From contig RSEE01000066.1 of NCBI GenBank assembly GCA_003971905.1, positions 372,001 through 397,582 of the forward strand: 25,582 bases of DNA, in the 5' to 3' direction. This DNA is from Moniliella sp. 'wahieum' (lineage: Eukaryota). The position numbers and the translations under genes were made by a program. The notes under the pieces were generated by a model. It saw nothing but the letters and a program-made list of their open reading frames with translations. It made no database searches and was not told the origin of the DNA. Positions 6,388-25,260 of this stretch are shown piece after piece (position 1 is the first letter of the stretch; each line of letters starts with the position of its first letter).

Positions 6388-7061
6388 GAGCAGCGTAGGT
6401 TGAATGTTGAGGCACGAACCATGCGTAGGCTCATGCACTGTGAATCGGATGACACGTCGGACACTCAAACTTACGTGTTCTGTAAAGGGGGGAGAGAGGA
6501 TGAACTGTCGATTGTGCCAAACGAGCGCGGCAGTGGAGGAAGGTCGTACAGACGAGCTTGTTGAGCTCTGGGTCCGGGCCCCTCGGCCTCTACTAGGAAG
6601 AGGGCCCCTGGGAGGAAGGGGGGTTGACGAGGCAGCCCCGATGCGGGATAGGATCGATAAGAGTGCTGCTTTTCACATGTAAGTAGGCGGACCCAAACCA
6701 AACGTATGTGGCAGGAGCGAGCCTAAAAGCAAAAGTATGCACCTCTTCTCCTCGCGTATTATTGTTGCCCTTACAACTAAGCGAACAAGGTGGTGAAAAG
6801 GGGCATACGGAGGCAACCGGCTGAGAGGTTGTATGGAACACCACATTTAAGGCATCATTGAGCATCGACCACCCCGGTCCGAATGGCAGGGACGGACAAG
6901 GGGTAGGGTCCCCACGCAGGCACCAGGGAATCCATCTTCTGTCCAATGCATTATTTCGATCATTGGCGGTCGCGCCACAACATAGCATCAGCTGTCGCCG
7001 GAGGTCCGATGCCAGCCGACCTATTATACTTTTGTGGCCACACAGGGGAGAGATTGCAGCC

Positions 7062-7064
7062 CCA

Positions 7065-7096
<32 letters not shown>
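7062..7096 (+). repeat. (CCRCCA)n hexamer microsatellite
   Basis: ccaccaccaccgccaccgccaccgccaccgccacc, just upstream of the probable ATG at 7162. Confidence 0.85.
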
Positions 7097-7099
<3 letters not shown>

Positions 7100-7161
7100 A
7101 TAGTCGTCACCTGCAAGTTCTTCAGTGCCTTCATCCCCATTGGCCTCCGCCATACCCCACT

Positions 7162-8574
7162 ATGACCTTCCACGCCGGCATTCTGGCTCTGCGGCAGGAA
7201 TTGCCACCATCGCAGCCGCTTGGCAGCACCGGCGCCATTGACACTCCATCTGCCGCATCCCAGGCCCCGCTTCCGAGCGCATCAGCAGCAGGGCCGGTGG
7301 TCAACCCAGCGACTGGGCGCAACGCCTTTGCATCACCCACCGCGCCCGCCACAACAGGGCCGGCGGGCATGCCGCAGTTGACGGCGACGAGTGAACCTTC
7401 AGGTGGAGCAGCCAGCTCCGCGTTATCGTTATTGTCCGAGTATACCCTACTCTCATCGTACAGCGACCTGGCTTCCATGGAATCAGCTCTTGGTGGCAGC
7501 GGTTTCCCTTCCAACGCAATCGCATCATCTTTGTCACAGGCTCTGTCCAGCTCAGCGTTATCGCCCACTTCCATGGCCTCTGCCGTGTCTCCATTGACCA
7601 GTAGTACTACCCCTACCGTTTTGTTCAGCTCGACCGGCGCATCATCTACCTACACTACCTTGCCCAACTCGATTAGCACCACAGTCACGAGAACCGCTTC
7701 GTCTTACCCCACTTCAACTACGAGCGCCTCGTCCGGTACACACTCCTCTAATTCGTCCGCATCCTCCTCGGCCACCACACACCCACACCGGGATTCGAAC
7801 CATGCAGGTGCGTTCCGACCTTATATGCATACCGACCCATGTTTTTTGCTTCCCTTCTCCATGATACTAACCGCTCCTGCTTTGATAGCTTCCATCGTTG
7901 GTGGCATTATCGGCGGCATTGTGGGCCTCATTGTGCTGTTTTTGGTTGCGTGTCTTCTGCTCCGGCGCAAGCGCAATCGGGCCCGCCAAACTGGTTGGCT
8001 TCCTTTCCACGGCACACAAGGTCAACCGGAAACCACTACTCGGTACGATCCGGGTACAGATAGTGAGGATGTTGCTGCTGGATACATTATTGGCGCGAGC
8101 ACAAGGCGTGCAAGTCGTGAAGTGCTCCCCTCTTCCCATTGGGCTTCCGATGACAGACTGGCTGTGCCAATCCAGCCCCCGACGGAGAACCCCTTTTGCG
8201 ACCCGACGAACCTCGAGGGCGGACCCAACAGTGAAGCGGTGGTACCCATCGCGACGCAGCCGAAGCTCCTCGTTCCCGGATCGAACCAGTACCTGGGGGT
8301 GCCTGACATTGCACGTCACGCATCGCGATCTTCCGGCCGGGAATCGTTTACTTCCACAGTCTTGCCAGAAACCAGTGCAAGCCAGGTGCAGTCGGCCGAA
8401 CCTTCTGGCGCTCCGTTCACCAGACCGATGCAAGACAACCCCTCCATCAAGACGCCCGCGCCTCCCGCCGCCATGGCTGCCCAAGCATACCCCACTTACC
8501 CCACTTACACCTATCCCTCTGGATCTTACACCAGGGAGGGAAACTCATACGCCCCAGTTCCCCACTTGCATTGA
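7162..8574 (+). CDS. Ser/Thr-rich single-pass membrane protein, Mid2/Wsc/Axl2-like architecture; probable in-frame intron 7808-7888
   Basis: Long S/T/A-rich region, then a TM helix SIVGGIIGGIVGLIVLFLVACLLL, stop-transfer RRKRNR and a cytosolic tail with ENPF. The 81-nt GTGCGT...ACTAAC...TAG intron gives NHA/ASIVGG. Start 7162 preferred over 6946. The frame may continue to 8768 through a frameshift. Confidence 0.75.
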   Translation: MTFHAGILALRQELPPSQPLGSTGAIDTPSAASQAPLPSASAAGPVVNPATGRNAFASPTAPATTGPAGMPQLTATSEPSGGAASSALSLLSEYTLLSSYSDLASMESALGGSGFPSNAIASSLSQALSSSALSPTSMASAVSPLTSSTTPTVLFSSTGASSTYTTLPNSISTTVTRTASSYPTSTTSASSGTHSSNSSASSSATTHPHRDSNHAGAFRPYMHTDPCFLLPFSMILTAPALIASIVGGIIGGIVGLIVLFLVACLLLRRKRNRARQTGWLPFHGTQGQPETTTRYDPGTDSEDVAAGYIIGASTRRASREVLPSSHWASDDRLAVPIQPPTENPFCDPTNLEGGPNSEAVVPIATQPKLLVPGSNQYLGVPDIARHASRSSGRESFTSTVLPETSASQVQSAEPSGAPFTRPMQDNPSIKTPAPPAAMAAQAYPTYPTYTYPSGSYTREGNSYAPVPHLH

Positions 8575-9735
8575 CTCTGAACAATAGCCCACCCGGGTTG
8601 GACAATACGATACATTACGATGACTGTCACCACCTTGCATATAGCTTTCGTACTGTCCCCGCTCATACTCCCACAGAGTTTGTTCCAGTTCGTCAAATTG
8701 GACCCACTGCTGACGGTCGATCATCCCATCCGAGAGATTTTGACCCGCGCACGAACATACTCTTTTAGGGAAAGCTGGGGATCAAAGTACCTTTTCTTTG
8801 AAAGTGACGGTCCTTGCGACACGCATACAAAAAGGAAAAACAGGAGCCACAGAGTCGGCCAACGTGCACTCCCGATGTGGAACCAGAGCTATTGCCATCA
8901 TGTACGCCTCGCCCCCCCGATCTTGGTCAGGGGCGTCTGCCTCTTCAAACAACTCAAGGCTTATATACGTGAGCTAGAGAAAAAAGGTATCGTCGCCAAT
9001 GCCACTTTTCTCGTCGGTGGACGGTTTATATTGGACAATAGCACGCTCGTACAGGCCACGGATCTTGTTGCGGGAATGAATCGCCTCTGGGCAGGCTAAC
9101 GCATCCCCCTGATCCCACGTGGACTCGTACACTCTCCTGCTCGAGTTGTTGAAAACCAGGTATCGAAGTCTGTGATGGACCATAGTTGTATTACCCGGTT
9201 GGGCCAGCTGCTCCTCATGCTGGATTCTCCTCTTGTCCAACCCGGTATCTTCCTCTGGCATCTTGGAGATTGTCAAACTGTTTCTCAAACCGGTGGTATA
9301 GGAAGCATATACACACCTGTGGGCTCTTTTTTGGATTGCGACAGCCGTTCCAAGATATACTTTTCCCAGTAGCACAAAACTGTTGGGTGGGGGGTTGCCG
9401 CTTGCTTATTAGGCGGCCCAGGTGCAAGTTGAAAGTTGAACGTTGAAACCTCCAGCCAACGCCGCACTTTGCAATTTGAACGTTTAGGGGCGGTGGCGTC
9501 TGACATAAGCGGATTCTCCACGCTGGCCTCCACAGTTGGGTGCTGTGCAGCTGAGGTAAGCGGCGCGAAGATTTTTCCTTTTTCCAGCGCGCTTCGAGAA
9601 GCAATGCTTGTGGATGCAAACCACCACCTGTTTTCTTCTTTCCAGCTCAGCCCCCTCCCCCACCATCACCACCCCCATCCGCCCATCCCCGCTCCAGCCC
9701 CACATCTTGGGTAAGTCGCACGCTGCTCCTGATGC

Positions 9736-9820
9736 GGACATGATGCTTTTGGTTCGATTACATGACCGCCTTTTGCACGGCAACATGGATACAACATTTT
9801 TCGCATTTATGCCTGATCCT
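9736..9820 (+). ncRNA. Intronic box C/D snoRNA; D' guide antisense to LSU rRNA UAAUCGAACCA (predicted Um at ~yeast 25S U922)
   Basis: Box C-like ATGATGC 9740-9746; guide TGGTTCGATTA 9750-9760; D' ATGA 9762-9765; degenerate C' ATGGATA 9785-9791; box D CTGA 9813-9816; short terminal stem GGA/TCC. Confidence 0.7.
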
Positions 9821-9978
9821 CCTTACCCCAGCCCTACCGAGCTGTTTTGCTGACCAGCCCTGCGCTACGCTACCAGACTCGCGCCACGGCGGTGCATCCC
9901 TCTGGCCGACCGCTCCCTCGCCCTTCCTGGTTTCTGCCTCGGACACAACAAGACGTGAGTACCATCTTCCCACCCACT

Positions 9979-10056
9979 CTCTCTGATGAGTAACTTACAC
10001 CATCTTTCGTTTGAGCCAAGGGCTATGATCCTCTTTTGATTAGTCTTCCTGACCCA
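9979..10056 (+). ncRNA. Intronic box C/D snoRNA, snR39/snR59 (SNORD32A/51)-type guide for LSU Am807, with a second guide to ~A917
   Basis: Box C CTGATGA 9983-9989; guide CACCATCTTTCG 9998-10009 is the reverse complement of conserved LSU CGAAAGAUGGUG; D' TTGA 10011-10014; AGCC/GGCT hairpin; C' ATGATCC 10025-10031; second guide TTTGATTAGTCTT 10035-10047 against LSU AAGACUAAUCGAA (one G:U); box D CTGA 10049-10052. Confidence 0.9.
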
Positions 10057-10221
10057 TCCACCTCCCCTGGCTTGTCTGGGCCCGAATGGAACAAAATCAG
10101 AATGCTGACCATTGCTCTTGTTGGTTGCACAGCCTTTTCTGTCCCGAGTTGCTTGCTACACGCGCGCTCTCACAGCGAATCTACACTGGTACGTCCCTCT
10201 TTCCTTTGCCCTCCTTCTGGC

Positions 10222-10342
10222 GTACCACCCGCCTGTTCGCCTCGCGCTTTTGGCGCGGCCCAACCATGGTACATAGTTGCGCAATTCATCACACTACACC
10301 TCATGTTCGTCTCGTGGTTTGTTATGGTAGCGTGTACGATTT
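10222..10342 (+). ncRNA. Possible H/ACA snoRNA (two hairpins; both boxes non-canonical as written)
   Basis: Hairpin 1 closed by GTACCA (10222-10227)/TGGTAC (10267-10272) with an internal loop and a CGCGC/GCGCG top stem; hinge ATAGTT; hairpin 2 closed by GTTGC/GTAGC; ACGATTT at 10336 where ACA-NNN is expected. Confidence 0.3.
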
Positions 10343-10542
10343 CATCAGCTCCGCTACAGATGTAACGCGTAGCGCTGGTCTATACATGCCGGGAGGGGCG
10401 GATGAGATCTGAGAGGATGTACAAGGGGGAACAGATGGCATGTTTTGGAAGGGGGTACAGACAACGCAAGGCCGCAGGAATTACTAAGTAGGAAGAGTCG
10501 TCGAAGAACCAAGCCAAGGGCGGCCCACCTGAGGCTCAGGGC

Positions 10543-13135
10543 TCAGGGCCCTGTTCCCAATGCCGGTGGTTCCAACGACAGAGCGTGCTGCCACCCCTCG
10601 GGGAACAGGTCGGGGTCCTCGGCCGGGTTGGCCAGGCCTTGGGCCAAGACGGTTTGTTTGGCGCGTTTGGTGCTGGCCAGCTCGGCCTTCCATGCTTCCA
10701 CGACGGCAGGCACCCGCGAGGGCGCATACGTGCGTGCAAACAGCGCTGCCTCGGCCGTGCGCTCGGCACCTTGCAGCAACGCAATGCACCCGTCCACGTC
10801 GCCCAATTGAAGCAGGGCCGAAAAGGCGACGTTGGTCAGCTGCTTTTCTTGCGCCAGCTCGGCAACGGTGCTCAGCAGCGCACGGTCCCCCTTGGCCACC
10901 GCCAGCAACAAGCGCCGACACATCGCCCGCCTTGCTAAAGCATTCTTGCGCCAAGTTCAAGTCCCATTGGGCCAGCGCTTTGTCTCCCAGCGTGCGCCAG
11001 TGCGCCTCGCTGCCCGCCGCCGGCTCGGCACGCGCAATGTTGAGCGCCACCTCGAGTTGATTGAGGTTGATGGCCAATTCGAACCGCTGGTCCGGATCTT
11101 GCGCCACCGACAGCGCCAGCTCCGTCTCGCCGTGCCCCTCGAGGAAGCGGGCTACGCGGTTGAGTTGGTCAGGAGGAATGTCGTGCAGCAGTTCGGCGGC
11201 TGCGTCCTTGTCGCCTTGGAGAATCAAGGTTTGGTATTGGACCATGGCGAGCGACAAGGCATAGCTGTAGATTGTCAGGTCTTTGCCCACCACGTACACG
11301 CGGCTGTGGGTGGGCAAGTAGCCCAGAATGTAAAGCTCGCTTCAGGAAGGAAGACAAGGAAGGAGGGAAGGAAGAAACGGTTAGTCTCAGAAAAAAAGAG
11401 AGAGGGACCAAGGCAAAAAGAGGACAAAAGGAAAGACGTACGTATCGGTATGACTGATTGTGTACGTTTGATCGCCGACGAGGTATTGAAGCTTGTTGTT
11501 GGTGGTGGTGTAGAGCAAGCACTCTTCCGTCCACTTGGCGGAGCGGACAGGATCGTTAACCTCGGCCACCACGTCCAAGCTGTCCTCCACCCCTTCGTCG
11601 CCCAGGTCGGCAGGGGTTTGCGCCGAGGCCAAGGCGGCCTCCAAGGCCATCGGGTTGTAGCGCAGCACGTAAAACGAGTCGTCACCAACGATGCTCACCA
11701 GCTCGCCCGAACGGGACCAAGCGACCTGCTTCGCCTCAACATCAATCCGCCGCACCAGCGCACCCGAATCCCAATCGTAAAAGCACACAAACCCATCCCC
11801 GACCACCGCCAACAGAGCCCCGCCGAAAACGGTGGTCACGGCATAGCCCAACGATAAGAACGCCTCGCGCTCTTTAAAGTTGCGGTACACCTTGACGCTT
11901 ATCGTCCGTCTTGACCGCATACGTGGTCGAGTCGTGGGACCAGGCAAAGGCCGAGCCCGGACCAAACGCTTTGTTGCGCCAGGCCAACGCGGTGTAGACA
12001 ACGTACTCGCCATCTCCGACGGCGGTGACGAAGCGGCCGTTGGGCGAATGGTGCAGCGCTTGTGCGTACGACTCCAAGTGGCCCAGTTCGCGCGTGGGCA
12101 CAATGAGCGCCTGGCCATCCGATGCCGTCTCGTCCGCTAGCGCTCCCACGTTGGCACTGTGAATCTCGAGGTTCTTGGCATAGATCACCTTGCCTGCCTG
12201 GTCCATGCTCACCACCGGTTCCTCCTTACCCAGCTTGACCACGACCAGCCCATTGTCGTACCCAAGCGCCACGTCGTTGCTCGCCTTGCTCACCGCTGCG
12301 CACCAGCACCGCTCCAGACCATAGTCCAATAAACTTTCTGTCCGGTACGTCGTACTGTCCCACACCGCACCGTGCCATCTTCCGCGCCCGAAATGAGCAC
12401 GGGAAGACTGGGATGGTAGATGGCAAAGGAGACGTTGAACGCATGGCCTTCGAGCGTCTGCACGCACGACTTGGTCAGGTAGTCCCACTTTGATCGTCTT
12501 GTCGTCCGAGCAGGTGATGAGGTAGGGCTTGTCGCTGCCAGGGTAGTAGTCGACGTAGTTGACCCCGCGCTCGTGCGCTTCGAGGGTATAGTTGGGCGTG
12601 GTGATGCCGCTCGGCCCGAGGCCGGCACCAATCGTCCACACCTTGACTGTGCGGTCGATCGAGGCCGAGGCAAAAGTGTTGGAGTCCTTGGGGTTGAACA
12701 CAAGGTGCATAATGTAATGCGTGTGGCCCTCAAACGTCTGCACGTGCTTCCAGTTCTTGTCCCAGTCAAACAGCCGGATGGACATGTCGTCGCTGCCGGT
12801 CAGGATAAAGGGCAGGGTGGGGTGCACGGCCAGGTGCGGATGTAGTCCGGGTGCGCCTCAAACTGCACCACCTTCTCCGACGTGTTGTAGTTGAACACGC
12901 GCAACTGGTGGTCATCTGCACCCGCCACAAACCAATGCTTGCGTGCGACGAACTTGGCCGTGCGCACCGGCACAGGCGCCACATCAAACGACTTGACCAG
13001 CGCACCCGTCGTGTAGTTGGTGATCTGCACCGTGCCATTGTACAGCGCAGCCAGGACCCAGGGCTCGGTCGGGTGGAAGTCGAGCGCCTTGACGCGGTCG
13101 GAGCGCGCGACAATGCGCCGGTTCAGCTCGAGCAT
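10543..13135 (-). CDS. SEC27: Coatomer (COPI) beta' subunit; intron 11340-11441; about 5 apparent frameshifts
   Basis: [130 protein letters not shown]. The intron GTACGT...ACTAAC...AAG joins [13 protein letters not shown]. Exact stop (10543 vs ~10484) is uncertain. Confidence 0.97.
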
Positions 13136-13232
13136 GGCGGCAGAGCGAGCGGAGGTGGTCGCGCAGAGCCAACCGGCCCCGTCCCGTTGGCGTGGCCGGC
13201 CAGCTGGCCCAGCCGCCATGCCCCGCCCGAAG

Positions 13233-13246
13233 ACGCGCTGACGTGG
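13233..13246. promoter_or_regulatory. ACGCGCTGACGTGG, UPRE-like bZIP element ~100 nt upstream of SEC27
   Basis: Identical 14-mer also at 18305-18318; TGACGTGG is the XBP1/ATF6-type UPRE core. Confidence 0.45.
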
Positions 13247-13809
13247 AGAGTGCTCGCGAGCCCCGACCCGACTGGCGGCGCGGGCAGGGGTAGGGTTGGT
13301 GCTTATGTCAGCACACGGCGCTTGGGCGCTTCGGTTCTGCCGGCCACGTGTTTGTGTGTGGTGGGTGGCAGTGGGTTGCGCGCTACCAAGGCTGCTGGTT
13401 GCTACGGGGTGCGGTTCAACTCAACGCTGCTCTTCCGAGCGGCAAGCGCAGATGATTTCGTGCTCTGTCGGCGTCCAGCGCCACTGGCACCGCCCTGCGC
13501 CCGGGGCAGGGAGGGCCCGTAGGCACAGCAGGGGGCAGAGTGGGGTACGTCGGCTGGACGGTCCCGGGGGAATGTAATAACACGTCGTGCGAGGACCGCC
13601 ACAGCCACGAAAGCTCTCGTCGGGCCAACGTAGCCTAGCCGGTCGGGGGGCTTGTGCGCGCCCTCGAGCCAGCCAGGGCCAGACGAGCGTTCGAAGGCGA
13701 GAGGGGGGCATATCCAGTCGTGGGGCATAGAAAGGCAGGCAACAATCAATCGGGCGCAGCCGACGCCGACCAGCCGGTTCGGGCTGGGTCGCTGCACCAC
13801 GCGGCACGG

Positions 13810-16419
13810 TTACACAAACACTGCATGGTGCGTGCGGTCACTGGGCGCCTTGGTGGTACTGGCGCCCGAGGCATAGGAACTCATAGTCAGCCCGCGCGAG
13901 CGACCTACGATCGGGCCCTCGGGCTCGGTAGGGCGCAGGTCCAGGTCGACGGGCGGGGCTAAGCTGAGGCTCAGCGGTCGGCCTAGGCGGAACGAAGGCA
14001 AGGGCGGCGAATCGACAACGCTAGCGCTCAGACTGGGCCCGACACTCGGCGCCGTCTCGGCAGGCTCGTCCATGTCGAGGTACTCCAGCCGAGGCCATAG
14101 GCGTGCGACGGCGGGTGCGGCGGTATTGGCATCGAGTCGGGGTACTGCTCCCAACTGGTCCAGCTGGTCGGGGTGGGAAACCATGCGCGGGACTGAGCCG
14201 CGTGCCAGACCGAGGCGAAGAAGCAGGGGGCGAAGGCGACGTGGTTTGCACCACTGACTCAGAAAGGTGCTGGACGAAAGTGAGAGCTGCGAGACGCCTT
14301 GCGACGCCACACCGTACAGGGGCGAGTGGTGGGACGGGCTGCGCGCAACGGTGTGGACAGAAGAGTGGTGGGAAGGGTAAGACGGCGCAGAGGGGACGGA
14401 CGGGTGGCCCGTCGAAAAACCGCCACTGGCTCCGAGGGAACGAACGCGTACTGCCCATCCGCGGGCCTACACTCGACGGGCCCCGGCTGCATACTCGGGC
14501 CGGCCGACTGGGCCGATTGCCCCCGAGCGCTGGCTGCGGTAGCCCAACGAAGCCACGGGCGAGCGCAGGGAGCGGTGCGAGCCGCGAGAAAAGGTGGATC
14601 GGCGGGTAAACGAGGGCCCGGGACTGTGCGCCCAGCGAAGGTCCGGCTCTTGACCGGGCAACACGACGTCTCGCTCGGAATTGTCCGACGCATCTTCCCC
14701 ATACACCTCGGACGTGCCATAGGTGCCCTCGTATACACTGTCGAGTGCGCTGGGGCCGCCCAGCGGTCCAGCTCCTTCCATCCACCGGGAAGGGGTACAG
14801 GTCCGACCGCAGTCGATGAGCGCCCATTGCGCCCATTGTGCCCATTGTGCCCAGCCCCATACCCCCATGCCACCCATCGTGCCCACACCCAGGGCAGCTC
14901 GGATTCCGGAGAATAGACAGCCGACTGGCCAAAGTGGTACTCGGGCAGCGGCGGCGGCGGCGACATGCGTTCTCGCTCCCGCTCCTCGAGGCAGGCACCG
15001 AGTCTTCCAACGAAGCGCGTTCGTCGTCCGACAAGACGTTGGCCTGCCATAGAGCCGCGCCTCGAGGTAAGCGCGCAAGTCGCGCTGGGAAAACGCGGCA
15101 TCGGGATCGTCCTTGGTCTGGGCGCCTGCGCCTTCGTCCAGCGGCGGAGCCAGGGTGGTCGCGACCGCTTCGTCTTCGTCTTGGGGAAAGGGCGAGGCGG
15201 GGAGGGAGGTACGCGAATGCTTGGCCCGCGGGACATTCATAATCCCGCCCACGGCATCGTCGTGGCGATCGCGCGCGCACGCGGACTCATGCCTTCCTGT
15301 CCGGAATCCCACCCCTGGACGGAAGGCGAGCGGCGACTGGGCGCAGAGGGGGGGGCGGGAACGGGGTGGTGCCGACGCGAGGTAGGGTGGGACGAGAGGT
15401 GGACGGCAGTCGCTTCGGTCGCCCCGGTTCGGGCACGGGTGGCAGAAGGGTCAATGCCCCCTGCACCGGGCGTGCCAGCACACTGCCAGTCACACTGTGC
15501 CCGGCGACCCAGCGCGAGGTGCGGCCGACCGGGTCAGAGGGCACAAGGTGCAACGCGGCAGAGAAGCTGGCTCGAGGCCTCCTTTCCCTCTCTGACTGAG
15601 ATACGGCGGGAACGGGCGCCGGCGGGGCGCACCAGCGCTCTCGGCGCGCAGGGGCGAGGGGCGTGGGCGTGGGCGTGCGGGTGGGACGCACAACAAGCGC
15701 AGAGCCGAGCCTCGGGCGGACCTGCGGGCCGCTGGGCCGGCGGAGACGGCGTGGCGAAGGTGGAACGCGGCACTCGGCCGGCAAGCGGTACAGCACAGTG
15801 AGGGCGATGGGTGGGGGGACGTGGTAGGCGGCGGACGCTGGTAGGAAGCAATGAGCGCAGGCCAGCTGCAGGGCGGGACACGTGCGTTGACCCGCTTAGG
15901 CTCGGGGGGTGGAGCTAGAGGTGGGCAGGAGGAGGTGGGTGCGTGGGACGAGGTCGTCGGCCAGGCCAAGCGCCTGGCGAGCGAGGCGACTTGTTGCTCG
16001 TAGACGCGCAGAGCGGCAGCAGCACCGTGTCGGCCTCGATCGGTGGCGCGCCGACGCAGCGGGCGGAATGCGGCTCGGCGCAAGCGGCGAAAAGACGGCG
16101 AGCCACTTGTCGAGATGGGCGGGACTGGCGAGGGTGGTGGGCTCGGTGGCGCGGGCGCGCGGGCGCGGGCGTGGGCGGCGCGGTGGGGCTGTGGGCGGCG
16201 CAGAGGCAATGTAGGCAGGCCGCGGCGAACAGAGGCAGAGCCAGAGACCGAGGGGGCGCGGGCGGGGTGGGAGGGGTGCGTCGGGCGTGGCGGGGTGGAA
16301 GGTGGGCAGGCTGGGGGCGTGGCGGAGCGAGGCGAGAGAAAGCGGGGGCGCTGGACGGCGGGGCCAGACGGGCGGTCGGAGTCACGCCGGGCAAGAAGGT
16401 GGCGGGGAGGCCCGCGCTG

Positions 16420-16460
<41 letters not shown>

Positions 16461-16563
16461 GGCTGTCGTGGTGGTTGTGGGTGCCGGGGTGGTGCTTCGA
16501 CGTGGCGCTGGCAGCACGCTGGGCGTCGTACAGGGCGTGGTGGATGCTGGGCGGGCGGCGCAT
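13810..16563 (-). CDS. Long low-complexity hypothetical protein (Pro/Ser/Arg-rich, poly-Asp), fragmented by frameshifts and possibly introns
   Basis: Chain of protein-like minus-strand segments: MRRPPSIHHALYDAQ...poly-D, ALRVYEQQVASLARRL, FSQRDLRAYLEARLYG, LDSVYEGTYGTSEVYGED, LWPRLEYLDMDE...HHAVFV*. No domain recognised. Confidence 0.55.
16420..16458 (-). repeat. (GAC)13 trinucleotide repeat, poly-Asp in the hypothetical gene
   Basis: 13 GTC units on the + strand. Confidence 0.9.
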
Positions 16564-16997
16564 GGCAGGGGCGGGTGCGGGGTCGGTGGTGGGCGGCGCG
16601 GAGGCCGAGGGGAGGCGGCCATGGCGCGGAGGCAGCCAGTGGTGGGGGGGGGGCAGGCGGCGGGGGGGGAAAGGATGGGAAAAAGATGGGACAGGCGACA
16701 CAAATGACGTTTTCGGAAGAGCAGCCGGAGAAAAGCCACCGCCACCGCTGGCACACTAACCCTGGCTGCTCGGCCTCCAGGGCATGTGTACTGTCCGTCT
16801 CAGCGCCCACATTGCCCGACGCCAGCCCAGCGCCCGACCCGCCTCGTCCCACCCGGCGCCACCCCCTCCGGTCTCCTCCGAACACACGCCTCCCGCCCGC
16901 CTTGAAACGTTCACCCCTCCTCCCACCCTGCCTTTTTCCCCTTTTTCCCTAGGTGTACGACTGCCCCTCGCCCATCCCATACCCCCGCTCGCCCGTT

Positions 16998-17815
16998 TCA
17001 ATCAAACAAAGCAGACCGTCTGTCTCCATTGGCTCCACCACCTTGCCCCTTTTCCTCTTGACCTGACGATGACGTAGTGCGAGTCCCCAGCCTCGGACCC
17101 CGTTTGGTCAGCTTGCGTGTATTAGACGCGTCGGGATCAACAGCGTCGCCGTGACGCACCGTCTGCTTACGTCCTGGCGACACTTTTTTGTTGACGGCGA
17201 GCAAAGACAGGTACTCATTCACCAGGATCAACGTTGTGTTGGGTGGCTCAGCGCGCACAGCCTCTTCCTCTGCAGCAGGTTCAATCTGTACATCTCGCAT
17301 ACCAGTCTCTTCCACCTTGGCACATCCGCCTTGCCCTTGTTGTCGTCTGCAGTGCCTTGAGCTTGCGCTGGGCCATTGGGACCGCCCCAGTCATGCTCCA
17401 ACGTCTTGGCCGCTCAGAGTCGCTGTGGGCGGTGGCCGAGTTATGGTACGACCGTGGCCACCACAGCGGGCACTGTGCCACTCCGACGCCGACCACAACC
17501 ACAACCACAACCACGACATTCGTTTGTTCCAACACACATTCCTCCCGCATCTACTCAGTCAGTTCCTCGTAGCCTCAGCCTCCTACACCATGTTCCGTGC
17601 GGAACGAGCGTGGGCAGCGCATCCAACGCACCACGGGGGACACGGCAGCGCTCGTTACCGGACAAGGTACCTTACCAGCGGCAGAAGGACGGCTGGTCGC
17701 GAGCGGTTGGGCCCTTGGGGGGGATGTCGCACGGGTGGGCGCACCAGGCCCGTCTTGTGGTTTGGGCGCGTGCTTTCTTCTCTGCAGGCGTGGCCGAGGG
17801 GGCGGGGGGCGTCAT
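16998..17815 (-). CDS. Possible small hypothetical gene
   Basis: Protein-like ORF 16998-17315 (EETGMRDVQIEPAAEEEAV...TTLILVNEYLSLLAV); an upstream ATG at ~17815 (MTPPAPSATPAEKK) with a GTAAGG donor. Structure not resolved. Confidence 0.25.
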
Positions 17816-18298
17816 CGTCGCTGAGAAGAACAAGTAAAAGGGGTTTTGGAAGAAGCGTCGCACGGGGCGCAGCTAGCCATATAGTACCAGGAGCTCAGTG
17901 GGCGCGGTAACAGGCGCAATAAAGGCGAAAGAGGTGGCATGCGAGCGAGAGGGAGGATTGGCTTGGGCTGCGCCAGCGGTAGAGGGGGAATACAACAGCA
18001 ACTGGAGTAGCCTGCTCGCCATCCCGGCCAGAGCTGCGCGCGCTTGAAGGCTCGCACCGAGTGGCAACACGCTGAGAACGGATCAAGGAGGCTGGGGTAT
18101 ATATGGGCGAGAAGCAGCTGGGCCTGCGCCAGAGTGGGGCGCTCAGCTGGAGCACTGGGATTCGGTGAGCGAGTGCTGGCGACCAGGCGCTCCCTGCGCA
18201 GCCACGGTGCTTCGTATGCTTGTCGCTTCGGCACATGTGATGTGGGATGGACTATCACATGTGACATCCCAACTTCAGATGCCACTCTAATCACCACA

Positions 18299-18318
18299 CC
18301 AATCACGCGCTGACGTGG
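18299..18318 (+). promoter_or_regulatory. CCAAT box plus ACGCGCTGACGTGG UPRE-like element upstream of the J-protein gene
   Basis: CCAAT 18299-18303 followed one base later by the 14-mer shared with the SEC27 promoter. Confidence 0.45.
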
Positions 18319-18489
18319 CGGTGGCTCGTCACCGATCGACGTCATCGACAGGGGCATCAATCAGCGAGGATTGATGGACGCTGTGTCTTGTGTGCCCCTC
18401 TCCCCTTGGCCAGCAACACCAGCCAGCTGCCCCGCTTGCCCTGTCCCACTCGTCCCCCACCCCCGCGCTTCTCCCCCCGCCGCACCGCC

Positions 18490-19452
18490 ATGACCGAGCC
18501 CCTGCCTGACTTTTACGCCGTGCTCGGCGTCCGCCCCGCCTCCACCGCCGACATTGCCCAGGCCTACCGCAAAGAATCGCTGAAAACCCACCCGGACCGC
18601 TTCCCCCACGCCACCCCCAGCGAGTACGTGCTGTGTTGTCCTGTGCCCGCATCGCCCGCATTGGCCGGCACCTGGCCTGGTGCCAAGTGCCAAGTGCCAA
18701 GTGCCAGATGCGAAGTGCGAAGTGCTAACCTCCCCGCCTTGCCCTGTGGCGCTCTAGACGCGAGACGTACACGGCGCGTTTCCAGTCCGTCGCCGACGCC
18801 TGTACGTGCCTCTCCTCCCCTCCCTCTCCCCTCCTCCTCGGCCCCGGTCTCTCTTAAATATCGAGGTAGGTAGGTATTGACATCCCCCCCCCGCCTCCTC
18901 TGTTCCTCCAGATTATGTGCTGTCGGACCCAACGCGGCGTGCCGAGTACGATGCCCAGCGCCTGGCCCAGCCGGATACCTGGGCCGAGTTTGAGCGCTAT
19001 TTTGGCCCGGCCGGCGACGCGCGGCGGGAACAGGCGTCGTCCGCCCACTTTTCCACACGCGTCCGTCGGGAGCGGGATCGACATCTGCATCGGGATCGAC
19101 ATCGGGATCGGCCGGGTCGTCGCAGGCGCCGCCGCCGGCCGGGCAGCCTTCTGCGACGGGCGTGTTTGGGGATGTGTTTGCGGAGATGCTTCGTCCGGAG
19201 GTGCACCGCTTAGCTCCGTGGTGGACGTGGGTGGGTTCGGCGTCCGGCGCGGCGCTGGGGTTTATTGTGGCCAACGTGCCTGGCGCCGTGGCGGGCGCCG
19301 TAGCGGGCAACCGCCGCGCCGTGCGCGACGCCAAGGGCAAGTCGGTCGCTGAGGTATTTGCTGACTTGGGCGCCAGCCAACGCACCCAGATCTTACGCCA
19401 CTTGGTACTCAAGTTGCTTGGCCCGCAGCCCGAGGCGTACCACAGCGCGTAG
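18490..19452 (+). CDS. J-domain (DnaJ/Hsp40 class C) co-chaperone with a C-terminal Gly/Ala-rich hydrophobic segment; introns 18624-18757 and 18802-18911
   Basis: Splicing gives LPDFYAVLGV...IAQAYRKESLKTHPDRFPHATPS/ERETYTARFQSVADA/YYVLSDPTRRAEYD (HPD motif, complete J-domain). C-terminus FGDVFAEMLRPE...GAALGFIVANVPGAVAGAVAGNR...RDAKGKSVAEVF is a conserved fungal J-protein type. One frameshift in ~19020-19150. Confidence 0.93.
18680..18728 (+). repeat. Heptamer tandem array (GTGCCAA/GTGCGAA variants, 7 units) in J-protein intron 1
   Basis: gtgccaa gtgccaa gtgccaa gtgccag atgcgaa gtgcgaa gtgctaa. Confidence 0.85.
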
Positions 19453-20957
19453 CCTCCCCTCCCCCTCCCCTCCGTATCCTTTCGTATCCTTTTCAGTTGC
19501 CCCCCCCTTGGTCCCTGCCGCGTTCGTCCTGCTTCCTTCCCCCGTTACGCGTTTTTACGTTTTTTGTTTCGAGCGGGCATTGGCCTGGGTGGATACCCCC
19601 CCCCCTCCAACTGTTGCTGGTTGGGTACCTTCTGTTCTCTCCAACCACGAGGATGCATCTCTTGACCCCATTGGCCTCCGCTCGTCCGCACAAGGTGAGG
19701 TGACCCCAGCCAGCCAGCATGGTACATTAGGCGGCTGCTCCGTTGGGCACGCGTCGTAGACCCCCGTTCTCACCTCCGTTCCTGTTCCTGTCCCGGTAAC
19801 CCGCCGCGTATCCCCCTCCCCTCGCGCGGCCCGTGGGGCCCGGAACAGCCTCTTCGTCGCACCTCACGCGGTCTGGCTTGATTGGCGCACAAGGACGTTC
19901 ATAGCAGGCTGGCAGCACGCGGCGGCGGCGGTGGGAGCAGCGCGCGACGTGGGCGCATGCCCTGCGGCACGTCCCGCCCGACGGCAAGGTGGAGCGGACG
20001 AGGTCGCGAGACGGGGCTCTGGTGGGAGGCAGAGATGCGCAGGACCGTTGCGCCTGCACGTGAATGGATTGTTCCTTGTTCTCTCGAGCGAGCGCGCAGG
20101 GCACCGTGCAGGATGGCCCGCGCGGCGGATGATCGATGAGAGGGATGACTAGATGACTCGCTGACAGATGACAGGTGTCAGATGACATGGATGACAGATG
20201 GCGCCCGCTGATCTGTCTGTCTGGGCACTGCGCCATTCTGGTTGGGTTGTGCTTGCGCTCCCTGCTGGGGTGTGGGGGAGCGGCGCCTGTCTGGATGGGG
20301 TGTGCCGGGCGGCCAGAAAGCGTCTGATGGGCGTGTGGACGAAAGGGGGCTATGCGCAGCAGTCCATTAGTCATGAGCATCCATACTCAACACTCGAGTA
20401 CGCAACAGCGTTTGAGGCGCGTGTCCGTTTCTGTGTGCGGTGTGTGATTGGGTGGCGCGGTGGCCGCTGTTGACTAGCTGGCTGTCAGGCGCATGGCGTT
20501 GCTGGGGATGGGGGGTGGGGGGTTGGGGTTGGGGGCGTGGTGGTTGTGCGTAGCGCAGCGGCGGGTGCGGATGATGGTGAGGGAGCCGCTTGGAGACGGG
20601 AGAGCCGGCCGGGGGCAGACAGATGGCGATGGAGGGGCAGGCGTGTGACATGTGACATGTGACGAGACCCAGGCGGGAGGGGCGGTGGGTGTGATGTGCA
20701 TGTGACAGGCAGTGGCTGTGACGAGAGCGGGTGGGTGCGCGCCAGACGGGCAGCACGGGGCGGGTGTGCGCCACACGCCACGTGGCGCGGGCGACGCAGG
20801 GGGGCGCATGGGGGGACGAATGGGACGCATGGGGGAGGGCGGCGCTGTGCGCTGCGCTGCCCGAAGGCCTGAGGCCTAACGCCTAACCATCCGCCCTCGG
20901 CCATCCGCACGCCCACCCGCCATCCGCACGCCCGCCACGCCCATCTGCTGCGCCGCC

Positions 20958-23900
20958 ATGGCCACCACCTCCCGCCCCCCCCGGCGCAACGCTGCGGCAG
21001 CTCCGCCAGGGCTTCTCCTCGCCCTACGCCTACGCCTCCAGCCACGCCGTCTTCCCCACCGCCCCGCCCCACCCGCCCTCCCGCTACCCGCCCCGCCGCC
21101 TGCGCCCGCGGCCGCGTCGCCTTCGTCGCCTCCGCCGCCTCTCTCGCCCCCCTCCGCTGTCTCCGCCGCCTCCGCCGCCTCCGCCGCCTCCACGCCCTCC
21201 ACGCCCTCCGCCCCGCCCCGCCGCCGCGTCAAGCATGACTCCCAGGCGCTCGCCCGCATGGCCTCCACCCACTACGCCAAGCTCCTCGCCTTCCTCGCCA
21301 CCCACCTCGCCTCTGGTACGTTGCCCTCGCCTGCGCATCGCTGTACCCTGCTGACCTCCCGCCAGCCTCGCCCCCCAGCCGCTCCCATGCTCGCGACAAG
21401 CTCAGCAAGCTGAGCAAGCAGCAGTTTGCCGAGCTCTCCACCGACGTGTACGACGAGCTGCTCCGTCGCCAGACCACCCTCTCCGCCGCCCCGCCTGCCT
21501 TGCCCACCCGCGCCGAATTCCACCCGAAGCGCAACCAGGCCCGCCAGAAGCTCGCCCACTTGCCCTCGGCCCGCTTCCGCGACCTGGCCACCGACGTGCT
21601 CACCGAGCTCGAACACCGCTTCCCGCACATCTGCCACCGGCCCCCCCTCGACCACTTACTGCAGCCACCACCAGCGGTCGAGTCTGAGCCACCAGGACTA
21701 GACCAGGACCAGGGCCAGGACCCGCCCAGGACCAGGACCAGGACCAGGGCCAAGATCTGGACCACGACCAAGATCTGGACCAGGACCAAGAACCCGAACA
21801 GGAGACCAGCTCCTCTTCCCATTTCTTGCGTCCCACCAGCTTGGCCTCCTCTACCACCACGACCTCCGCCCGCTCTCCCCCTCACCACTGCCCCAACCAG
21901 CGCCATCGACACTGATCCTCACTTTTCTGACGACGCCGGGCGCAAGATCGAATTTGCCCCGGACGCGGACGCGGACCAGCCACGCTCTCCCTCCCACCTA
22001 ACACTGCACACTGGCCAAGATACCGTCCGAGATAGCGGTCGGGATACGGATGGCGAGGGTGAGGGTGAGGGCGAGGGCGAGGGGAGGGTGGTGGCTATGG
22101 ATATAGCTATGGCTATCGCGATGGTGATGCCCAACCCACCGCGGAAGCCAACACGGGGCTGCGGTCGCCGGCCTTTGCGCCCCCTCCCCGCTTCTCGCAC
22201 CAGAGTCGCATTGATTTTTCGATTTCGGGCCCGAGCGAGTCGGGGCAATCCGAGCTGCTGAGCGACGATGAGTCCTCGGCGCTTGCCCGGCTCGGTCGGA
22301 TCCGGGGGTGTCCGATGCGCATTTGTCGTTGGAGTATGACGAGATGGAAGCCACGCCCCGTGCGGAGCGACTGGATTGGGCCCGGCCCGGTGCGGCGGGC
22401 TCGTTTGGGTCGGACGAACTGGAGGTCGTTCCGCGGGAGGACGAGGCCCGGGCTCGTGTCAGCTTCGTCTCTTCCGTCGGAGGCGGCTTGCTGCTCGCGT
22501 CCCAGCCCCGATCCGACAGCCAAGCCGCATGGTCCGACCCGCTCGCCCTACCGCCTCAAGAGGAGTACGACCACGAGGCCGACGCAGACGCCCATCCAGC
22601 GAGCCATCAGCCCCACCTCGATCACAGCTTCCTCCCTGACATGACCTTCTCCACGTCGGCCAAGTCGTTCGGGAGCAACGAGACGTACCTGCCGGCCACG
22701 GGGGACCGTGGAGCGGCGGGAGCAGAAGCAGCCGGGCCAGGGTCCGAGGCGGCCGACGTGTCGCGCCTGGTGCGCGAACGCGATGAGGCGCAGGCCCAGG
22801 CCCAGGAAACCGAGCGGATCTGGACCGAGTTGCGCGCTGGGCTGGAGAGCGAACTGGCGCACCTGCGCACCCAGCTTACCGAGACCCAGGAGCAGCACCG
22901 CGCCCTCGAAGCGCAGCTGAGCCACGTGCACCAAGACCATCGCGATGCGCTGCAAGAGCGCGAGACGTACTTTGCCCAAGCGCTCGACGAGCAAGCTACC
23001 TCGCACGCGCGGGCGCTCGAAGAGCATGCGCAGGCCCATGCGCAGGCTTTGGCTCAGCACACCGAGTCGCATGCCCAGGCCCAGGCTAAATGGGACGCCG
23101 AGCGCGCCCAGTTGCTCCCCTGGCAGGACAGGCACGACGAGCAACGTACCGAGGCGGAACGGTGGCGAGCGATCAGTGAGCAGGCCACCGCGCGCGCCGA
23201 CGAGCGTCCGGCATGGCTGAACAGGCGGGCATGTTGTTGGACCAACTGCGCTTGGAAACCGATCGGGCGACCGAGGCAGAAGCCAAATTGGCCTTGCTCG
23301 AGCAGGAGCAGGAGCAACAGCGCAACTTGCCCGCGTCCTCTGACACGCAGACCGAAACGCAGACGGAAACGCAATGCAAATGGTGCAGGAAGTGCAGCTG
23401 AGCGGGACCAAGCCCATGCCGACCTGGCCTCGCTGGGCGCCCGGCTGACCCAGGTCGAAGCGCAGTTGGCCCAGGAGCAAGAGCACGAGCAGGCCCGGGC
23501 GCGAGAAGCGCAGTACCAAGCTACCATCGCGTCGCTCCAAGCCCAAGCCGAACAAGATGCCACCTTGCTGCAGCAGCTGACCGCCCAGCTCGACGCCCAC
23601 AAGCACACTGAAACCCAACACAGTCTTCTGTCGCACCAGTCGCCGAGCTCGAGGCCCAGCGCACCGCCGCGCAAGAGGCGCTGGACCGGATCCGGTCCCA
23701 GATCGCCTTGGCTCGTCCTCTCCGCTCGCGCCAAGGCGCCGCAGCGCAGCAGCGCGTCCGCCTGCCTCTCCTGCCCGTACTGAGGCCGAGGCCGGGGCCG
23801 ACGCCGAGACGACGCCGAGGGGGACCGCCTGCCTGCCCTCGTCGCGCCCGGGGGGAAGATTGATCATGGCCACTGGTCGGAGCTGCAACAATCGCTGGAT

Positions 23901-24648
23901 AGGCTTCTGGCTGGCTCGGAGGACTCGGCCGCGCGCGCGGCGCGGCGCTGGAGCGTGTCGTTTGGGCCAGCAGCCTGATCTTGTGGGACGTGAGTGGCAG
24001 CGGGAGCGGAAGGGCGTCGAGCTCTGCACCTGGGCAGGAGGAGGCCGAGCAGGCCGAGCAGGCTGAGCTGCGCAGCGCACGGGCCAGCTACTCGCGCGCT
24101 CTGCACCGCTCAGGGCCACGTGCGACGCGGCGGCGTCCGCTTCGGACCTCGTGCCCCCCTCGCTCGTTTCCACCAGCACGACCGAGGTGGCCTTGGCTGC
24201 GCTCGCGCTCGCCAAGCGCGTCGGTATCGCGCCTGCGCCGCCCCTGGCCGATCTACCCACGCCACCTGGCACGAGCACCACGCTGCGCCCACTGCATACC
24301 CCGTCCCATGCCCCGCCACCACCTCGGTTCTTGCGCCCCGGGCCTGTGCCCGCCTCGTCGTCCTCCCGCGCGCTGCCGGCCCAGTTCCGGTTCCTTACCG
24401 CTCCTACACGGTTCCCTACCCCCTATCCGACCTCCGTCTCCGCCGCCGCACCTCCTCCTGCGCTGCCCGTCCCGCCCGTTTCGCACGCTTCCCACGTTTC
24501 GCACGCTTCCCACCCATGGTCCTCGCCGCGCTCCGCCACGTCCGACTTGAGCTCGGGCTCGTTTGATGATGAGGACACCAGCGACGTGATTGGCCATGCG
24601 CATGTGCAGCCGCTGCGGTTACCTACGGTGCACCTCGTCGCTCGTTAA
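20958..24648 (+). CDS. SPA2: Spa2-family polarisome scaffold (tandem GIT/Spa2 homology SHD-I repeats plus long coiled coil); intron 21316-21365; several frameshifts
   Basis: HYAKLLAFLATHLAS/ASPPSRSHARDKLSKLSKQQFAELSTDVYDELLRRQ...LPTRAEFHPKRNQARQKLAHLPSARFRDLATDVLTELEHRFP is the diagnostic SHD-I tandem. E/Q/A/L-rich coiled coil at ~22760-23640; Pro-rich tail to the stop at 24648. Confidence 0.88.
21700..21790 (+). repeat. Degenerate (GACCAG)n hexamer repeat within SPA2, probably Asp/Gln-rich linker
   Basis: gaccaggaccagggccaggacccgcccaggaccaggaccaggaccagggccaag... Confidence 0.75.
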
Positions 24649-24785
24649 ACTGTGAACTGTTAACCGTTCCACCGTTCCACCGTCCCCGTTACCGGTTACC
24701 CTTTCCACCGTTAACCCGTTTACCACGTTGACCCGTTTACCGCGTTCCACCGTTAACCCGTTTACGCGTTCCACCATTTAACCAT
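24643..24785 (+). repeat. Degenerate 7-9 bp tandem array (CCGTTCCA / CCGTTAAC / CCGTTTA variants) just 3' of SPA2
   Basis: More than a dozen variant CGTT-core units starting at the stop codon. Confidence 0.8.
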
Positions 24786-25260
24786 GTAAAAAATGCCCCC
24801 CCCCCCCCCGGCCTCCCCTCCCGGGACGCTTGGGTTGTTGGCGATGGATTGATATTGATTAATCATTGTCACTGGCCGATGGGGGGGGGGTGCTCTCTGC
24901 TGTGTTTTCTCTCTGCTTGCCGTCTCCCCCTTCCTCCCCTCGCTCATTTTCTCTTCCCGTTGCCCCCCCCCCCCCCGTTGTGGACGATTTCTTGTACCGA
25001 TGTTTGCATTTTTTTGGCTCTTGCCTCGTCGGCGTAATTGTGCGACTCCTCTGTTCTGCTTGCTCTGCTCTGCCTACTGGCTCTACTGCTTTGCCCTACG
25101 GTCGATCGATCGGTCCCGGATCGAGGATCGAGGATCTAATGCACCAAGCGCGATCCTAACCCCCCTCGCGTACCCTCCCCTCCCCTCCCCTCCCCTCCCT
25201 GCTCTGCATCGGGCGAGGACCATCCCATGGCTGTCTACTATATACAAGGCGGGGTATTAG

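Follow-up and report, generated by a model that had tools for sequence, protein, structure and literature searches.

A putative non-coding host gene carrying two intronic box C/D small nucleolar RNAs next to the beta'-COP gene of Moniliella sp. 'wahieum'

Between the gene of a predicted membrane protein and the beta'-COP gene (SEC27), a contig of Moniliella sp. 'wahieum' contains two short introns separated by a small exon. Do these belong to a gene for a small protein, or to a gene whose useful products are small nucleolar RNAs (snoRNAs) released from the introns? We analysed the locus within a window of 25,582 nucleotides (nt), that is, the whole stretch of DNA under study (contig RSEE01000066.1, positions 372,001-397,582, assembly GCA_003971905.1), and all coordinates below refer to this window. 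The original prediction proposed a dedicated non-coding, spliced host RNA for two snoRNAs, and this proposal is supported by the anatomy of introns and boxes, by guides that fall on known fungal methylation sites and by the absence of a coding signal in the exons. The locus is probably a small gene, transcribed from the plus strand by RNA polymerase II, whose role is to supply two box C/D snoRNAs, here called snoRNA A (intron 1) and snoRNA B (intron 2). The anatomy, the in-register complementarity to ribosomal RNA (rRNA) and the lack of coding signal were read directly from the DNA.

Exon 1 of the presumed host RNA (9604..9710, +) ends at a GTAAGT donor, and its start at 9604 marks only the ATG of the spliced open reading frame (ORF). 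It is followed by intron 1 (9711..9876, +; 166 nt), with a CTGAC branch site at 9850-9854 and a CAG acceptor. Then come exon 2 (9877..9954, +; 78 nt), lying between the two introns, and intron 2 (9955..10132, +; 178 nt), with a GTGAGT donor, a CTGAC branch site at 10105-10109 and a CAG acceptor. Exon 3 (10133..10412, +) is bounded downstream only by the stop codon of the spliced ORF. Both introns and the exon between them had been predicted, and each intron indeed carries the full consensus set of fungal donor, branch site and acceptor. Intron-like patterns of at most 200 nt cover 3.6% of the strand positions of the window, these two introns included. For a third intron at 10188 (GTACGT), the pattern search gave no branch site with acceptor. 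The intron 1 donor and the intron 2 acceptor also make a valid intron of 422 nt (9711-10132, +), which means that exon 2 might be skipped. Such alternative splicing is reported for snoRNA hosts of Neurospora crassa (PMC2780460).

Box C/D snoRNAs are stable RNAs of about 70-120 nt that bind fibrillarin, Nop56, Nop58 and Snu13; a C box (RUGAUGA) stands towards their 5' end and a D box (CUGA) towards their 3' end, at a distance of 60-120 nt, and a short terminal stem draws the two boxes together. Each of the two introns contains C and D boxes so placed. A guide was taken to match when at least 10 base pairs (bp) of antisense to rRNA or small nuclear RNA directly preceded a D or D' box, and its target was the nucleotide paired with the fifth base before that box (box+5). 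The rRNA test set consisted of eukaryotic large subunit (LSU) ribosomal DNA (rDNA) contaminating prokaryote assemblies, retrieved with a 16-base LSU motif. Sixty-five loci (L001-L065) were retrieved, 43 of which have rRNA context, and all six loci that we tested against Rfam are eukaryotic LSU rRNA. Three of the four guides match this rRNA under the box+5 rule, the D guide of snoRNA A being the one that does not. For comparison, guide positions were also scanned across the window at 488 NTGA sites on both strands (124 CTGA and 364 others).

The stronger of the two units is snoRNA B (9979..10056, +, with approximate ends), defined by its boxes and by two guides matching rRNA. Along the plus strand it has a C box, (C)UGAUGA, at 9983-9989 (UGAUGA core 9984-9989), a D' guide at 9998-10010 and a D' box, UUGA, at 10011-10014. 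A mini-hairpin of three pairs (GCC-AAG-GGC) lies between D' and the C' box, AUGAUC (10025-10030), and is followed by the D guide (10035-10048) and a D box, CUGA (10049-10052). The branch site lies downstream of the D box, whose end is 80 nt from the acceptor. The D' guide forms 12 of 12 pairs with CGAA*AGAUGGUG (CGAAAGAUGGUG) of LSU rRNA in 33 of the 43 loci, and the D guide forms 13 bp, one of them a G-U pair, with AAGA*CUAAUCGAA (AAGACUAAUCGAA) in 42 of the 43 (the asterisk follows the target nucleotide). The two targets lie 110 nt apart in rRNA, exactly so in 33 loci, at positions 839 and 949 in the numbering of one of them, L035. Of 300 shuffled versions of each guide, none reached the length of the D match and one reached that of the D' match. 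In the scan of the window, no other of the 124 CTGA sites matches rRNA as well as the D guide, which is also the best of all 488 NTGA sites, and the D' guide is the sole G-U-free one of three 12-bp matches at the 364 other sites. The two strongest rRNA-antisense matches of the window stand 38 nt apart in one C/D'/C'/D frame. We regard snoRNA B, as predicted from these features, as very probably real.

Moreover, both targets of snoRNA B are known guided sites. Its guide strings match those of snR39 and snR83 of Schizosaccharomyces pombe, and at box+5 it puts the A of CGAA*AG and the A of AAGA*CUAAUC. The first of these, the snR39-type site, is presumably A807 in the numbering of Saccharomyces cerevisiae. 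The S. pombe site table gives 25S-Am839 as the target of snR39, with snR39/59 of S. cerevisiae and human U51/U32a listed as homologues, and 25S-Am949 as that of snR83, for which it lists no counterpart in S. cerevisiae, Arabidopsis or human (PMC4138321, Supplemental Table S2). The L035 numbers of the two snoRNA B targets are identical to these (PMC4138321). In N. crassa, CD47, a homologue of snR39b, guides Gm785, the G of CCCG*AAAG (PMC2780460, Additional file 4), and CD39 guides 26S-Am897 in AAGA*CUAAUCGAA, its second guide being directed to 26S-Am375 (PMC2780460). The D' target of snoRNA B thus lies two bases after Gm785 and its D target is Am897, and the 110-nt spacing of the two targets is consistent with Gm785 and Am897 (PMC2780460).

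With the targets identified, snoRNA B can be compared with its relatives. It shares the target nucleotide of S. pombe snR39, but its guide precedes the D' box (UUGA), whereas that of snR39 precedes the D box. The Rfam family snoMe28S-Am982 (RF00535) aligns to the 5' half of snoRNA B, guide included; unlike snR39 and RF00535, snoRNA B carries a second, unrelated guide. With snR83 and CD39 it has in common the guide GAUUAGUCUU, which pairs with AAGACUAAUC(GAA) and places the same A at position 5, but theirs precedes a D' box (AAGA) and that of snoRNA B precedes a canonical D box, and the other halves of those RNAs differ from snoRNA B. The N. crassa study describes a separation of guide elements, and their recombination, in the course of fungal evolution (PMC2780460), and the differences from snR83 and CD39 fit this description. 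Neither of our two snoRNAs is one of the N. crassa box C/D RNAs of Additional file 1, compared by eye, and among those RNAs the guide strings match only CD39 and CD47 (PMC2780460). We also considered snoRNA B as a homologue of U18 and rejected this, the guide of N. crassa U18 (CD46A/B) being different (PMC2780460). A pattern scan of metagenomes with both guides of snoRNA B returned four loci and no homologue: three of them are chance matches in A+T-rich sequence, and the fourth is a reduced stretch resembling rRNA.

The unit in intron 1, snoRNA A (9736..9819, +), is about 84 nt long and is defined by its boxes, a short terminal stem and the rRNA match of its D' guide. The stem pairs GGA (9736-9738) with UCC (9817-9819) outside the boxes. 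On the same strand lie the C box, AUGAUGC (9740-9746), the D' guide (9749-9761), the D' box, AUGA (9762-9765), and the D box, CUGA (9813-9816), at a distance of 77 nt from the C box. The end of the D box is 60 nt from the acceptor, the branch site again lying downstream of it, and the start of the C box is 28-29 nt past the donor in each intron. The D' guide forms 11 of 11 pairs with UAAU*CGAACCA (UAAUCGAACCA) of LSU rRNA in 43 of the 43 loci. The target U is number 954 in L035, five bases past the second site of snoRNA B. Within the window this is the sole G-U-free one of six 11-bp matches at the 364 non-CTGA sites. A target in 18S rRNA was dropped for this guide in favour of the perfect 11-bp LSU match, and for the D guide a target in 5.8S rRNA was not accepted, the pairing by eye being about 8 bp at most and starting at position 5. 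A literature search with the guide string gave only papers on rRNA primers. A second C-box-like element, CUGAUGC (9729-9735, +), precedes the C box by 11 nt and may be either a remnant or an alternative to it. Judged on these features, snoRNA A is probably real as well, on weaker grounds than snoRNA B.

Several points weigh against a gene with two snoRNAs, some of them general to the locus and others falling on snoRNA A or on the exons. First, the test rRNA comes from unrelated eukaryotes and not from the host organism. Only the 12-bp D' site of snoRNA B is fully independent evidence, since the motif used for retrieval contained the other two sites. Second, the search of Rfam that had been suggested as a check gave no match at the gathering score in the whole window. 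The alignment of snoRNA B to RF00535 (clan CL00054) reaches 21.5 bits, with a gathering score of 49 and an E-value of 0.077 on 106 bases, and the best match of snoRNA A, SNORD11, reaches only 15.3 bits (E-value 1.6). Third, neither intron folds better than its shuffled versions (z scores of 0.46 and -0.04), which is neutral for C/D snoRNAs. Fourth, no terminal stem adjoins the boxes of snoRNA B, and it was for this reason missed by our first scan, which required a stem. Many intronic snoRNAs have no terminal stem. Further sub-threshold Rfam matches from permissive scans (mir-540, HOTTIP, MIAT, KCNQ1OT1, mir-51 and TCL6) were taken as chance.

The points that concern snoRNA A lead to the alternative that survives best, namely that only snoRNA B is functional and that the unit in intron 1 is a decaying paralogue or a chance look-alike. 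The claim that each intron holds one C/D'/C'/D unit with rRNA-antisense guides upstream of the branch point was confirmed, with rRNA matches for three of the four guides. In the unit of intron 1, the C box is a variant ending in C instead of A and the C' box is degenerate. No rRNA match to the D guide was found in the test set (the best, 8 bp, is equalled by 220 of 300 shuffled guides), and 15 of 300 shuffles attain the 11-bp length of the D' match. The target U of this unit is absent from the site tables of N. crassa and S. pombe consulted here (PMC2780460, PMC4138321), and the C-box-like CUGAUGC just upstream could also be counted in favour of a degraded copy. On the other hand, the C and D boxes are properly spaced and closed by the GGA/UCC stem, and the guide match is the only G-U-free one of its length in the scan. 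The guide also lies in the correct register with a target beside the second site of snoRNA B, and the unit occupies a consensus intron of its own at the same distance from the donor as snoRNA B. We consider it unlikely that snoRNA B is the only functional unit.

The next question is whether the exons encode a protein. The two splices do create an uninterrupted ORF of 154 amino acids (aa) from ATG to stop, as predicted. On this basis the locus could be a real protein-coding gene with both snoRNAs in its introns, and in N. crassa intronic snoRNAs do occur in coding as well as non-coding hosts (PMC2780460). At 465 nt this ORF is also longer than the ORFs of the N. crassa hosts, which measure 159-267 bp (PMC2780460). 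However, after splicing the two remaining frames are almost as open, for 137 and 108 codons, and long chance ORFs are common at a G+C content of 58-60%. Scored for codon usage, the spliced ORF reaches -0.02 and the window's real coding frames 0.09-0.23, in a model trained on only five ORF pieces of the window, the same frames that serve for the comparison. The predicted product is of low complexity and rich in Pro, His and Ser. The ORF in the last exon (10086-10409; 108 aa), which covers 93 of the 154 codons, has no Pfam match. It likewise has no match among the proteins of 59-189 aa in a search of 5.8 billion clusters and none among 1.84 billion representatives; these searches for relatives covered the last-exon ORF and not the whole spliced product. 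The spliced ORF looks non-coding, and on the codon and homology evidence a non-coding host is quite likely, a coding gene of 154 aa being distinctly improbable.

A third possibility is that both snoRNAs are real and are cut by endonucleases and exonucleases from an unspliced monocistronic or dicistronic precursor, like most snoRNA clusters of S. cerevisiae and plants, with the splice-like signals being incidental. Both S. cerevisiae and plants offer well-known cases of polycistronic snoRNA clusters outside introns (PMC2780460). Here, though, a donor, a CTGAC and an acceptor stand at typical fungal distances around each snoRNA, a pattern confined to the small share of strand positions given above. 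In N. crassa, moreover, introns house 45 of 55 box C/D snoRNAs, each in an intron of its own (Liu et al. 2009, PMC2780460). An unspliced precursor appears a poor explanation, less probable than a coding host. Finally, that the whole pattern is due to chance, with no snoRNA and no host gene, is scarcely credible: the missing Rfam match at gathering score would fit it, but the counts of shuffled guides, NTGA sites and intron patterns, and the two best rRNA matches standing in one frame on known guided sites, argue strongly against it.

Taken together, these results favour a dedicated host gene, for which we propose the following course of events. The gene would lie between a possible divergent ORF on the minus strand (or the Ser/Thr-rich membrane protein gene) and the beta'-COP gene. 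We infer its transcription, splicing and processing, and the resulting methylations, from the DNA. The primary transcript would be spliced at 9710/9877 and 9954/10133. Both lariats would then be debranched and trimmed by exonucleases to the small nucleolar ribonucleoprotein cores formed on the C and D boxes, which would yield two RNAs of about 75-85 nt. The spliced RNA of three exons would be a by-product with no conserved protein. Of the two products, snoRNA B would direct 2'-O-methylation by fibrillarin (Nop1) of two adenosines of 25S/26S rRNA, in CGAA*AG (Am839 of S. pombe) and in AAGA*CUAAUC (Am949 of S. pombe, Am897 of N. crassa), and snoRNA A would probably direct methylation of the U in UAAU*CGAACCA.

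Hosts of this kind have been described before. Of the six snoRNA clusters of N. crassa, five lie in UHG-like hosts with only short ORFs (PMC2780460). The annotation of the N. crassa hosts is poor, and their splicing, including alternative splicing, was confirmed by reverse transcription polymerase chain reaction (RT-PCR; PMC2780460). Our locus resembles these hosts (clusters I-V), as well as vertebrate UHG and GAS5, in that each short intron holds one box C/D snoRNA flanked by canonical splice signals, that the exons have low coding potential and no conserved protein product, as judged from the last-exon ORF, and that it may, like them, be poorly annotated by gene finders (PMC2780460). It differs from the N. 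crassa hosts in having only two snoRNAs and a longer chance ORF (PMC2780460). Those hosts were confirmed by RT-PCR, whereas this locus is known from sequence alone (PMC2780460). In all respects tested, the predicted gene fits the description of the UHG-like polycistronic intronic hosts of N. crassa (PMC2780460).

With regard to the surroundings, beta'-COP (SEC27) lies downstream on the minus strand with its stop codon at 10484-10486, so the last exon of the host converges on the 3' end of SEC27. By its sequence this beta'-COP gene suggests an ascomycete; a protein atlas placed a piece of it no more closely than Ascomycota. Upstream, an ORF of 542 aa (6946-8574, +) encodes a predicted single-pass membrane protein that is rich in Ser and Thr and bears a His/Arg repeat (HHHRHRHRHRHPH) at its N terminus. 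No relatives with an E-value of at most 1e-5 were found for it among the matches listed, and in Pfam it matches TM_ErbB1 only, below the curated cut-off. Because this ORF ends at 8574, about 1 kb before exon 1, it is unlikely that the host is merely its 3' untranslated region. On the minus strand, an ORF starting with ATG (8977-9261) is followed by the open pieces 8785-8973 and 8548-8781, which together may be a divergent orphan gene; for the ORF at 8977-9261, neither a Pfam family nor relatives were found. The presumed promoter contains TTAGGG (9484..9489, +), a site of the Tbf1 type about 120 nt before exon 1, which as a single hexamer is a weak hint. In N. crassa and Aspergillus fumigatus, the sequences upstream of ribosomal protein genes are reported to be enriched in TBF1 motifs (PMC4138321). 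The same region has three tandem GTTGAA[AC] repeats (9428-9456, +) that may be transcription-factor sites.

The G+C content of the window ranges from 54 to 73%. Most of the left half has 54-63%, with 70% at 1001-2000, and most of positions 13000-25000 has 64-73%, with 60% at 17001-18000. As for the rRNA test set, some of its eukaryotic rDNA loci sit in long contigs filed as bacterial metagenome-assembled genomes, for example L034 on a contig of 532 kb; L048, on a contig of 116 kb, has complete small subunit, 5.8S and LSU genes, and L015 and L035 are further examples of eukaryotic rDNA. That 43 of the 65 loci found with the motif are eukaryotic rDNA points to eukaryotic contamination or misbinning in prokaryote assemblies.

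A further reading joins the two snoRNAs. It holds that snoRNA A guides the 2'-O-methylation of a U of 25S/26S rRNA that neither the N. crassa nor the S. pombe site table contains, five bases from an A targeted by snoRNA B, that the locus is a co-expressed module acting on one stretch of rRNA, and that snoRNA B is a new double-guide RNA with a guide of the snR39 type. We offer this reading tentatively and consider it rather doubtful as a whole. In our literature search we found no RiboMeth-seq study of filamentous fungi. According to the fungal snoRNAome survey, Sordariomycetes have no detectable members of the snR39/b family (PMC5824354). If the joint reading were true and the host organism were a Sordariomycete, snoRNA B could account for the missing family (PMC5824354).

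The arrangement itself is ordinary and has been known in fungi, namely in N. crassa, since 2009 (PMC2780460), and the locus does not change the understanding of how snoRNAs are made. One fungal genome would gain from it a host gene and two methylation guides, all of them unannotated, and the 154-aa ORF would be a gene model that should not be called as a protein. One possibly new site of rRNA methylation is predicted. Moreover, by combining a guide of the snR39 type with one of the snR83/CD39 type in a single RNA, snoRNA B would be a further example of the reshuffling of guides between fungal snoRNAs.

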